Below are positions 12,148 through 47,668 of a DNA stretch of 64,000 bases, in pieces. The notes under the pieces were generated by a model. That model searched no databases, was not told the DNA's origin, and was given only the letters and a program-made list of their open reading frames with translations. Made by a program: the position numbers and the translations under genes. This DNA comes from a virus, in the IMG/VR virus record IMGVR_UViG_3300025930_000008, positions 1 through 64,000 of that record; one strand, written 5' to 3'. Every line of letters begins with the position of its first letter. Positions within the stretch are counted from its first letter, which is position 1.

Positions 12148-12410
12148 AAAAAAGGCGGGTAGCTAGCCGCTATCCCGCCTCACAACGCTTGGCATCATCG
12201 TATAAAAATGATAACCCATCGGTTGAGGGTTCCCGCCCTCAAGCTAGACCGAGTGGTACCTAGTATTCCCAAACAATATGGCCCGTGCCTCACTAGGAAA
12301 GACGCGGTTGTATCTGAGATAGGGCAGTCAGATACATGCAAGCCTACTTGACCTGAGGCATACCGCACTCTGGCGGACGTAACCCCAGGGAGTCTCCCTA
12401 TCGCTTTAGT
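12148..12410 (-). ncRNA. unassigned structured ncRNA (~260 nt)
   Basis: promoter TTGACA(12445-40)-N17-TAAGCT, terminator at 12148-12180, no ORF, helices TGCCTCA/TGAGGCA, TGTATCTGA/TCAGATACA, CCTAGT/ACTAGG. Confidence 0.65.
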
Positions 12411-35388: not shown

Positions 35389-35663
35389 ATGTTACGACAG
35401 GTCCAGCAAAGGTAATCATCCATGGCTGCTCGGCGTCCGCAACCATTCCCGCAGCGATTGGAAGCCACCATCCTCTTGACATTCTCGTCGGGCGTAGCCT
35501 TGACATTCGTAGCATTCAAGAAGATGCTTGATGATCGCCTCGCACTCCGCGCTGCTAATTGGCGGGTCTGTTGGTGGACGCCCACCCATCGCTTGTATCC
35601 TTTGAGATAACGTCCTTTCCGCCACTTACGCTTCGCTCCCTGTAGTGGTTTCTGTTGTGGCAT
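35379..35663 (-). CDS. hypothetical protein with C-terminal Zn ribbon
   Basis: CGNGC...DDYLCWTCR; stop is TAG at nt 8-10 of tRNA-Gly. Confidence 0.6.
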   Translation of the reverse strand: MPQQKPLQGAKRKWRKGRYLKGYKRWVGVHQQTRQLAARSARRSSSIFLNATNVKATPDENVKRMVASNRCGNGCGRRAAMDDYLCWTCRNMHS

Positions 35664-42194: not shown

Positions 42195-42266
42195 TGGCGA
42201 ATATTGGAGTCGAACCAATGACGCGAGGTTCTTCAGACCTCCGCTCTACCACTGAGCTAATTCGCC
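42195..42266 (-). tRNA. tRNA-Phe(GAA)
   Basis: loop CTGAAGA. Confidence 0.9.
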
Positions 42267-42348
42267 AAGTGAAGGCGGTTCGCCCCGCACCTTACGAACC
42301 CGAATCGTACGCGGTGGGCATAGGACACTAGTAATCCATTACCGCCAG

Positions 42349-42438
42349 CGGAGAGTGTAGGATTCGAACCCACGCGCCGGTTCAAGGCCGACCAACGGTT
42401 TTCAAGACCGCCCCAATAGTCCACTCTGGCAACTCTCC
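42349..42438 (-). tRNA. tRNA-Ser(TGA)
   Basis: long variable arm, loop CTTGAAA. Confidence 0.9.
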
Positions 42439-42451
42439 ATGTCGTGTATAA

Positions 42452-42871
42452 ATAAGCTGCGAGAGGCATAGCGTCCGCAGCTAAGATAGCCCGAATTGCA
42501 AGGTAAAGGTCAGGCCCTAGGCTCATCTGGCACAGCCGGGGTGTCCGTCCCTACGTAGGTTCATTCCAGGCCACGACTACCTAGCTGAAACCTATACCTC
42601 GGAGGCGTTCGCAGCCCCAAGCGGGTGAAGAACCACTTCAACCTTTAAGTTTAGAAACCTCCTGTTCGATGACAAATGATAGACATTTCAACCGACCTGA
42701 GCGTGTCCGTGGATACTGTGTTCGCACGCAGCGGTCAAGCACTCGGCCCCATATCCTTTTCGGCTGGCTACTCCGTCGCCCTTGCACAGTCATAGGTTTC
42801 TAAGGGTTCCCGCCCTCCACCTAATCTTCCCGCACAGTATGTGTCAGTCTATAAGCCTCAGGTTCTCAGCC
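42452..42871 (-). ncRNA. large structured ncRNA candidate (~420 nt)
   Basis: no credible ORF; long-range helices ACCUGAG/CUCAGGU, AUACUGUG/CACAGUAU, UUAGAAACCU/AGGUUUCUAA; 3' hairpin AGCUGCG/CGCAGCU. Confidence 0.6.
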
Positions 42872-42872
42872 A

Positions 42873-43120
42873 CTATTGGCCCTGTCCTAACCACCCTTGT
42901 AGGTGACTTTTATCTGCGACAACCTCTACATTGAGAGGGTCCCATGGTTGGGGCTGATCCCGTAGTGATTCATCCTCGGGATTTTCTGCCACAATCCAAG
43001 TGATGCCAGGATCGCTGTGAGCATACTCCCCCCAATACTTCAATGCATCGGCTTCGCTCACCACTCGGCCATACAGACCGTAGTAGTGATTCAAGATAAG
43101 GTATCTGACCTTAGTCTTGC
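42873..43120 (-). CDS. hypothetical protein (start uncertain)
   Basis: open frame between tRNA-Cys and the ncRNA. Confidence 0.4.
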
Positions 43121-43121
43121 A

Positions 43122-43192
43122 AGGCAAGGACGGGAGTCGAACCCGTGTTACAGGTTTTGCAGACCCGCGCGTAGCCATTCCGCCACCTTGCC
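43122..43192 (-). tRNA. tRNA-Cys(GCA)
   Basis: loop CTGCAAA, U73. Confidence 0.9.
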
Positions 43193-43306
43193 ATTACGTC
43201 GTAGACATTCCTCACGGTCACAATTACATGCGTTCTGACAAACGAAACCCTTGTGACACTCACAGTCTTTGATGGGCTGTTCACAAATAGTACATTTCCA
43301 TACCAT
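43148..43306 (-). CDS. small Cys-rich protein reading into tRNA-Cys
   Basis: MVWKCTICEQPIKDCEC...; ATG 2 nt after tRNA-Asn. Confidence 0.45.
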   Translation of the reverse strand: MVWKCTICEQPIKDCECHKGFVCQNACNCDREECLRRNGKVAEWLRAGLQNL

Positions 43307-44801: not shown

Positions 44802-44899
44802 GACTTACTTATCAGGCACAATCATAGTGCCTTTACAGATGGGACATACCCTACCATTGTTAAGGATGCCCCCTTTCATCTTGCATTTACAATCCATAG

Positions 44900-45349
44900 T
44901 GGAGGTGGGCGGAATTGAACCGCCGTCCTGCGTACACTTGTTGACTCAGTTTCTAGCAGCTTTGTAATACAATACTGGCAACCGGTTCTGAGCCGCCTAC
45001 CCTTACTCTACCACAAGATACGGCAGACTCATGCTAGTGACTGTTTGAAATAGTCGGGAGCAGCCTGTTGTTCCGTACACCCTGCTGTCGAGATTACTCA
45101 CCACGCAATGGAAATACCATTAGAGTGGAGCCGAGTAAGCCAATTAGATTGACCGTCTAATCTTTCCAAACAAGGATTTGGGACTTTATACCCCGGCCAC
45201 GCTTTCTGTTCCTAGGTCCGTGGCTCCTGACCCGAGCGGACTAAGCCGCTAGAGCAAACGTATGAGTGTCTGCAATTATTGTTAGTGGTAGGCCACTACC
45301 CGCTGCACTAAGGCAACCGCATCTTACACAGTCGATGCCTGTCACCCCC
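44900..45349 (-). ncRNA. ssrA: tmRNA, tag (A)ADTHTFALAA
   Basis: 5' GGGGGTGACAGGCATCGAC, 3' GGCGGTTCAATTCCGCCCACCTCCA with G3:U; resume context ATAATT-GCA; tag at 45273-45241. Confidence 0.95.
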
Positions 45350-45687
45350 ATGATTATCAGCCTCCACCTAGCCTTATTAGACTAACGTCTAGCTTACGGC
45401 CTCGCTCTAGATTTGCTGACACGGAGCGAATTAAAGTTTATGCCGGATTTCTTGGACGGCTCCGGCAACCGCCCATAAGGAGTTTATGAAAGGTGGTACC
45501 TCAACAAGACCGCGATATTCGCCTTGTTCCTCTCATAGACTCCACCAAGTTATACGAGAGTCCACTGTGCCGTAGCCACTCCGAACGGTTCCTGCCGTCC
45601 CGCACTAGCCTCACGGTCTAGGCGATGGTCGGGAGACAATCTCCCCCTTGGGGCAGTCCATCCCAACTTAGAAGTAGAACTCTCTAG

Positions 45688-45757
45688 TAGACCGGGCAGG
45701 ATTCGAACCTGCAATGAACAATGATAAAGATTGTTTGTGTACCGTACACACCGGTCA
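45688..45757 (-). tRNA. non-canonical tRNA-like RNA with UUA (ochre) anticodon
   Basis: canonical T-arm GCAGG-TTCGAAT-CCTGC, 6-bp anticodon stem, loop CTTTATC, U1xU72. Confidence 0.55.
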
Positions 45758-45824
45758 AGCCCCGGCATAGGGTTCCCGCCCTATGTTACTCCGGGGTCGT
45801 CCACGGACAATTAGTCGATGGACA

Positions 45825-46286: not shown

Positions 46287-46427
46287 GCAGCAGGCTCCCT
46301 CATGGGGCGTACCTCCCATAGACACTACCCGACAGGTTCCCGCCTGTCAAGGCGAGGGAACCTGCGTGCTTAATCCCCGTGGGTACGCACGGATTAGGTA
46401 CTGCGATGGCCCCTGACTGATGGGCAG

Positions 46428-47534: not shown

Positions 47535-47668
47535 TAGTACCGATAACGTTCAAGGAAGGGCTGTTATCGGTGTTATCGTGCGACTGCCATTGGACCATAT
47601 TCATAGTCGAGAGCCTTGCGCCGCTGCATGATACCCCGGATTCCCGTCCGGCATATTCATGCCTGATA

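Follow-up and report, generated by a model that had tools for sequence, protein, structure and literature searches.

A conserved, probably folded RNA element upstream of tRNA-Ser(UGA) in a viral tRNA array

Introduction

The small stable RNAs rnaC and rnaD of phage T4 arise by maturation of precursor transcripts that also contain tRNAs, and to date they have no known function. Both are non-coding members of the T4 tRNA cluster, where rnaC (species 1, 139 nt) and rnaD (species 2, 119 nt) are located downstream of the last tRNA (NC_000866). Two further families of phage and prophage non-coding RNAs, GOLLD (RF01998) and ROOL (RF03087), are often found near tRNA islands (PMC12286853), and many members of GOLLD exceed 800 nt (PMC12286853). 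With lengths of about 600 to over 800 nt, GOLLD and ROOL comprise multiple pseudoknots and form homo-oligomeric cages. The Y RNA-like YrlA RNAs of bacteria and phages (RF02553), with a length of about 100-130 nt, are likewise small and structured, and they contain tRNA-like hairpins.

The element described here, named E1, comprises about 153 nt. Like rnaC and rnaD, it falls into the 120-150-nt class, lies in a phage tRNA cluster on the same strand as the tRNAs, and adjoins a tRNA gene. Unlike the T4 RNAs, E1 is located upstream of a tRNA, and it is a candidate small RNA of putative stability. A search of the T4 tRNA region with an E1 covariance model, filters switched off, yielded noise, with the best score of 7.7 bits located elsewhere and a partial match of 2.4 bits in rnaC. 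Accordingly, rnaC and rnaD are the closest precedent for E1 by context, but they are not homologous to it and resemble it neither in sequence nor in structure. Compared to GOLLD and ROOL, E1 is short and its predicted fold is nested. Its hairpin P2, a 5-bp stem with a 7-nt loop, recalls a T-arm, as in the tRNA-like hairpins of YrlA, whereas no YrlA match lies inside E1. Altogether, E1 is a conserved and probably folded small RNA outside the known families.

Results and discussion

The tRNA array and its largest non-coding gap

The window, i.e. the whole stretch of DNA analysed, covers the initial 64 kb of an IMG/VR virus record that measures 107 kb and has a CheckV completeness of 67%. At least 18 studies of rhizosphere and soil metagenomes contain near-identical DNA. 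Between 34.7 and 48.1 kb, ARAGORN and Rfam identified an array of 37 tRNA genes and one tmRNA gene on the minus strand, with small ORFs interspersed. Genes for ribonucleotide reductase, DNA polymerase and terminase are located near the array, as is one whose product of 1198 aa includes a tRNA nucleotidyltransferase domain. The stretch 42452-42871 belongs to the largest non-coding gap in this section of the array, the ORF-free interval between an orphan small ORF and tRNA-Ser(UGA) (Table 1). On the minus strand, tRNA-Ser(UGA) is followed by a spacer of 80 nt, tRNA-Phe and the gene of a papain-like peptidase.

The initial annotation had described this gap as an ORF-free RNA candidate inside a tRNA array, and both observations hold true: it is surrounded by the minus-strand genes of the array, and stop codons of all three types (TAA, TAG and TGA) close the six frames of the interval. 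Stop-codon recoding was considered and rejected, as no single reassignment, including TAA as a sense codon, opens any of these frames. For the longest minus-strand ORF (51 aa, 42641-42793) the homologue search gave no match.

The orphan ORF upstream of the interval matched only itself among 5.8 billion proteins, and it is present neither in the divergent relative L101 described below nor in any other locus compared. Contigs of rhizosphere metatranscriptomes cover this ORF, extending to 42805, and also match the tmRNA gene. On the ORF, the RNA contigs of three metatranscriptome libraries cover 42857-43109, 42805-43026 and 42884-43100, for which DNA carry-over is possible. The RNA-library contigs are assemblies, those listed include none on 42439-42804, and they are uninformative on expression, ends and levels. 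A contig of the DNA run X4 is identical to the window at 42349-42950.

Two observations concern other parts of the array. A tRNA gene at 45687-45757 carries the anticodon UUA and would read the stop codon UAA. In the tmRNA gene (44899-45349), 90 nt within 45082-45173 are replaced by 124 other letters in contigs of all three metatranscriptome libraries, and the DNA run X4 matches the window and not these contigs at this position. The altered contigs could stem from a variant strain, or from processing or permutation of the tmRNA.

Table 1. Features of the ORF-free interval and its surroundings (window coordinates; P1 to P8 are predicted helices of E1)
Feature	Position	Strand	Remarks
tRNA-Cys	43192-43122	minus	upstream of the orphan ORF
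Orphan small ORF	43109-42876 (stop 42873-42875)	minus	78 codons; between tRNA-Cys and the candidate
ORF-free interval	42872-42439	minus	434 nt; from the orphan ORF to tRNA-Ser(UGA)
Lineage-specific 5' part	42641-42872	minus	232 nt; holds most of the proposed long-range partners
Hairpin GAGGG-CGGGAA-CCCUU	42802-42817	minus	one copy of the array-wide C(G/A)GGAA hexaloop hairpin
Sigma-70-like TTGTCA-16-TAAACT	42648-42675	minus	rejected candidate; its end lies about 7 nt upstream of E1
E1 conserved core	42488-42640	minus	candidate structured RNA of about 153 nt; aligned to L101:1322-1478
P1 hairpin	42638-42633 / 42624-42619	minus	RNAalifold
P2 hairpin	42618-42614 / 42606-42602	minus	invariant loop UGCGAAC at 42613-42607
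P3	42601-42595 / 42505-42499	minus	closes the long arm; helix of 5-7 bp
P4	42593-42589 / 42511-42507	minus	long arm
P5	42584-42579 / 42522-42517	minus	long arm
P6	42577-42570 / 42531-42525	minus	long arm
P7	42569-42566 / 42539-42536	minus	long arm
P8	42563-42556 / 42553-42546	minus	long arm, apical
Strain-variable hairpin AGCUGCG...CGCAGCU, then UUAUUUAU	42453-42487	minus	U-rich tail; between E1 and tRNA-Ser
tRNA-Ser(UGA)	42348-42438	minus	ARAGORN and Rfam; directly downstream of E1 in all copies
Complementary pair	42651-42660 / 42794-42803		10 nt
Complementary pair GAAACCUAU/AUAGGUUUC	42587-42595 / 42792-42800		9 nt
Complementary pair	42713-42720 / 42833-42840		8 nt
C(G/A)GGAA hairpins	47636-47651, 46328-46351, 45766-45785, 45583-45600, 42802-42817, 35442-35455, 12223-12242	minus	

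Relatives of the locus

A protein search with the neighbouring peptidase gave relatives graded 99%, 84%, 80%, 78%, 78%, 76% and 77%, and a metagenome scan with the peptidase alignment led to four contigs, namely the 99% strains L099 and L102, and L100 and L101 with 77-78%. Of the latter two, only L101 extends into the region, so that this contig, whose peptidase is 77% identical in protein, is the sole divergent relative with the E1 region. In L101, tRNA-Cys and tRNA-Ser(UGA) are separated by 183 nt, and the spacer at 1322-1478 aligns with the window at about 42488-42640 and with no other part of the interval. The arrangement with tRNA-Ser(UGA) directly after E1 is common to L099, L101 and L102. 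Over about 2.5 kb, L102 is identical to the window except for five substitutions and a deletion of 35 nt, all within 42450-42503 at the 3' edge of E1. This cluster of differences marks either a hotspot of local change or a short patch of recombination.

Outside this group, E1 was not found. The closest IMG/VR relative, L016, shares 75% amino acid identity in the ribonucleotide reductase and has a syntenic array, of which only the tRNAs align with the window. Its gap between tRNA-Cys and tRNA-Ser(UGA) holds a small ORF of 62 codons and not E1, and a search of its array with the E1 covariance model, filters off, gave no E1 either. The ORF (L016:20094-20289) has its ATG 2 nt past the 3' end of tRNA-Cys, and the stretch folds unusually well (z = -2.57). 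Among the ribonucleotide-reductase relatives, whose arrays are syntenic, and including the whole records G001-G004, E1 was detected neither by blastn nor by nhmmer nor by the covariance model. IMG/VR relatives found via the peptidase (best 48%) showed no tRNA array, and blastn against the GenBank phages of INPHARED gave matches to tRNA-Ser only. Conserved blocks of E1 were also used in exact-pattern scans, four against IMG/VR and a fifth against 185,579 prokaryote genomes, and these resulted in chance hits only, as checks of the hits with the covariance model or blastn showed. Across 35 loci and five whole virus records, the covariance model recovered E1 in the window, L099, L102 and L101 only. 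E1 is thus a rare, lineage-restricted family that is absent from Rfam.

The interval as a single RNA

The initial annotation had proposed long-range helices of 7-10 bp in crossing order, together with a switch or intermolecular pairing between GAAACCUAU and AUAGGUUUC. This proposal stands in part: the complementary segments are present, comprising the three pairs of Table 1 and five further pairs of 7 nt, and their order is crossing, but they are barely above chance, and most of the long-range partners are missing from L101. Of 1000 shuffles that preserved the dinucleotides, the observed count of perfect stems was reached by 3.5% for stems of at least 7 nt, 5.4% for at least 8 nt, 1.9% for at least 9 nt and 4.7% for at least 10 nt (p about 0.02-0.05). 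Since the arms of 10 nt and 9 nt use one common partner, they are not independent. Compared to shuffled sequences, the minimum free energy (MFE) of the whole interval was not lower, with z = +0.35 on the minus and 0.01 on the plus strand, and the 5' part showed a z of +1.27.

The 5' part of 232 nt holds the partners at 42792-42803, 42780-42786, 42833-42840 and 42857-42863. In L101 this part is missing, and E1 begins 26 nt after tRNA-Cys. In the 99% strains L099 and L102 the part is 100% identical to the window and therefore uninformative on covariation, and DNA and translated searches with it gave no homologue.

A multi-pseudoknotted RNA of the GOLLD/ROOL kind spanning all of the approximately 420 nt could draw on the mild enrichment of crossing complementary segments and on the reported location of GOLLD and ROOL by phage tRNA islands (PMC12286853). 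Nonetheless, we regard it as extremely unlikely. Neither GOLLD nor ROOL nor any other model of Rfam 15 matched the interval at E <= 10, the MFE values are unremarkable, and the two longest arms compete for a single partner. Furthermore, the proposed switch partner GAAACCUAU (42792-42800) falls in the segment that is missing from L101, and AUAGGUUUC has conserved pairing partners within the core of 153 nt. Since L101 lacks the long-range partners of the 5' part and nevertheless keeps E1, a large pseudoknotted fold is not needed for what is conserved. The conserved part is about 153 nt of the minus strand in place of 420 nt, and its supported consensus fold is nested and not a multi-pseudoknot. 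With 434 nt for the interval and 153 nt for the part conserved in L101, the size of GOLLD is not reached. Complementarity read by eye in a GC-balanced spacer of 430 nt lies near chance, and one divergent relative exposed this. In our reading, the interval is a composite and not one RNA.

Conservation and strand of E1

Compared to L101, E1 showed 72% identity over 160 alignment columns, with invariant runs of 17, 16, 11, 9, 9 and 9 nt. The neighbouring peptidase gene served as a yardstick: of its four-fold degenerate sites, 38% (35 of 91) are identical to L101, while 27% are expected by chance. Neutral sequence is therefore near saturation at this distance. In this comparison, the conservation of E1 is about that of tRNA-Ser (76%) and of the peptidase gene at the DNA level (74%). 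Stop codons in all frames and indels of 1 nt between the lineages indicate that E1 is non-coding. At the level of the compared sequences, these values demonstrate purifying selection on E1.

To regard the interval as a spacer devoid of function or as the remnant of a decayed gene, with the similarity to L101 originating from a recent lateral transfer, is a highly improbable reading in view of these values. It would account for the 5' 232 nt, which show no sign of constraint, and it agrees with the fast turnover of array spacers, as reflected by the comparison with L016. With neutral sites near saturation (38%), however, the similarity within E1 is not explained. The identity of E1 to L101 (72-77%) equals that of the flanking genes (74-76%) and not the value of more than 94% of the mobile spacer element E2, so that a recent transfer is unlikely.

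E2 is the spacer of 80 nt between tRNA-Ser and tRNA-Phe (42268-42347, minus strand). It is 94.6% identical to L101:3687-3760, located after tRNA-Glu(UUC), against a background of 74-77%, and it is precisely missing from the 99% strain L099. Its fold is three-way and closed (GGCGGU...ACCGCC), and one of its pairs is compensatory (UACGA/UCGUA versus UAUGA/UCAUA). A single pattern scan of IMG/VR gave chance hits only and no further copies. E2 looks like a mobile, structured spacer element.

The fold of E1 fits the tRNA-sense strand only, as judged from eight G:U pairs and from the consensus energies of the window and L101, which amount to -43.2 kcal/mol on the tRNA-sense strand versus -27.6 kcal/mol on the opposite strand.

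Predicted fold and covariation

RNAalifold predicted a nested consensus of 46 pairs, in which the hairpins P1 and P2 are followed by a long, internally looped arm, P3 to P8. The internal loops of this arm contain invariant blocks. P2, with GGGGC-UGCGAAC-GCCUC in the window as against GCCAC-UGCGAAC-GUGGU in L101, has three of its five pairs changed on both sides, two of them by transversions, while the loop of 7 nt is unchanged. For P3, the window has CGAGGUA/UACCUUG, L102 has CGAGGUA/UAUCUCG and L101 has CAGGA/UCCUG, and the helix is kept in all three. Its pairing in L102 is preserved through a one-sided change from G:C to G:U and another from G:U to G:C. The helices P1, P5, P7 and P8 are invariant and thus uninformative on covariation.

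In total, 98.9% of the cells are paired and five pairs are changed on both sides. The pair count of E1 was reached in none of 500 shuffles, and partners slid by 1-3 columns gave counts of 0-2, values to be read with the structure having been derived from the same sequences that were later used for the counts (model-fitted alignment). The lineages comprise two divergent ones and two 99% strains, and the covariation rests on one comparison. Within this model, compensatory changes demonstrably keep the predicted helices of E1. Folded singly, neither sequence stands out, with z = +0.58 (window) and z = -1.66 (L101), and an alternative local hairpin in the arm, UAGGUUU...GAACCUA around CUAGGY...GCCUGG, is equally invariant.

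The long invariant blocks could also point to E1 being conserved as DNA, e.g. as a protein-binding, promoter, recombination or homing site, with an incidental RNA fold. The concentration of the L102 rearrangements at the 3' edge of E1 (42450-42503) would be in line with such a site. However, the three double compensatory changes in one stem of 5 bp, transversions included, with a fixed loop speak against such a site, the G:U pairs make the fold strand-specific, and 150 bp would be unusually long for a DNA site. Conservation of E1 as DNA is therefore very unlikely, and we retain the reading as a folded RNA.

Sequences surrounding E1

Between E1 and tRNA-Ser(UGA), the window and L099 carry a strain-variable hairpin of 35 nt, which is deleted in L102 and absent in L101. 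In the latter two, E1 consequently ends about 14 nt before tRNA-Ser. The hairpin is dispensable, and it was not called in a scan for the terminator consensus.

Upstream of E1, a sigma-70-like sequence was considered as a promoter and rejected. One such site was found in 2.6 kb, compared to 2.0 expected in shuffles, and it is not conserved, since the gap of 26 nt between tRNA-Cys and E1 in L101 leaves no room for it.

One hairpin of the 5' part belongs to a series distributed over the array. C(G/A)GGAA hairpins occur six times on the minus strand of the 13.6-kb array, compared to an expected number of 0.16 and a maximum of two in 300 shuffles. They were also found on the sense strand of the relatives L016 (three), L100 (one) and L101 (one). 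Their stems differ and are nevertheless perfectly paired, the hexaloop is constant, and they lie in array spacers. This pattern fits a recognition or processing signal at the RNA level.

Comparison with known RNA families

The suggested relation to the giant RNAs was examined with their covariance models, and it found no support. The GOLLD model, including its conserved 3' domain, stayed below the gathering threshold everywhere in the window, and at E <= 10 it gave no match on 42200-43200, on the 171-nt core region 42480-42650 or on the L101 copy. For ROOL, there was likewise no Rfam match on the interval, the core or the L101 copy.

The models of tRNA, tmRNA, RNase P RNA, T-box and YrlA gave no match within 42439-42872 at E <= 10, and ARAGORN found nothing in the same range. 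Short motif resemblances to RNase P RNA, SRP RNA and T-box were consequently dropped. A weak YrlA match at 42217-42315 (22 bits, E = 0.046, compared to a gathering score of 69) lies outside E1. It rests on the genuine tRNA-Phe and also overlaps the spacer E2. A TROVE/Rsr gene was not found in the 107-kb record, which is 67% complete.

Proposed processing and function

E1 lies on the same strand as the array and ends 14-49 nt upstream of tRNA-Ser(UGA). Our preferred reading, which is held with moderate confidence, is that of a composite interval with a structured element of a new family, E1, which would be transcribed together with the array, cut out as a small RNA and act in trans. From 5' to 3' on the minus strand, the composite consists of the spacer of 232 nt, E1 (42640-42488), the strain-variable hairpin and tRNA-Ser(UGA). 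The unidirectional arrangement of the array suggests co-transcription, and the enzymes that mature the neighbouring tRNAs may release E1 as a discrete small RNA. The cut of RNase P at +1 of tRNA-Ser, located 14 nt downstream in L101 and L102, would produce its 3' end, and its 5' end would, in L101, result from the 3' processing of tRNA-Cys, which lies 26 nt upstream. The released E1 would then be a stable RNA that binds protein or RNA in trans during infection, as is assumed for rnaC and rnaD.

The main rival of this reading is a function in cis, with E1 as a folded 5' leader of tRNA-Ser(UGA) that guides or times the processing of this type-II tRNA, or insulates it from sequences further upstream, and is degraded after the cut of RNase P. 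We consider this unlikely, even though E1 is located just before tRNA-Ser(UGA) in four of four copies with a varying upstream neighbour, and the gap is 14 nt in both L101 and L102. Since the order of tRNAs is conserved in these arrays anyway, the adjacency carries little weight. Moreover, neither the other 36 tRNAs of the array nor the tRNA-Ser(UGA) of L016, L017 and L018 have such a leader, and no specific complementarity between E1 and tRNA-Ser was found. Loops and junctions of E1 hold invariant runs of 16-17 nt, which point to a specific ligand more than to a generic spacer.

Returning to E1 as a small RNA acting in trans, its possible partners can be considered. The invariant internal loop between P4 and P5 presents UCA followed by a purine at 42588-42585, i.e. 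the codon read by tRNA-Ser(UGA). By analogy with the specifier loop of a T-box, and more speculatively, E1 could dock tRNA-Ser(UGA) by its anticodon. The T-box model showed no match to E1, and a duplex prediction for E1 and tRNAs gave no signal specific to tRNA-Ser. In a wider sense, E1 might be the first of a new class of passenger RNAs of tRNA arrays, folded and about 150 nt in length, which the tRNA-maturing enzymes of the host would cut from the phage precursor and which would bind a specific factor of translation or tRNA surveillance, from either host or phage, but we regard this as possible rather than probable.

Conclusions

The spacers of large phage tRNA arrays are usually annotated as junk, and one of them holds here a selected non-coding element. 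The selection on E1 is as strong as that on the tRNAs themselves, the substitutions preserve the predicted helices, and no Rfam family matches. If E1 is processed and stable, it would be a third example, after rnaC/rnaD of T4 and GOLLD/ROOL, of phage tRNA clusters serving as platforms for the expression and processing of RNAs, and it would provide a small, tractable molecule for asking what such RNAs do.
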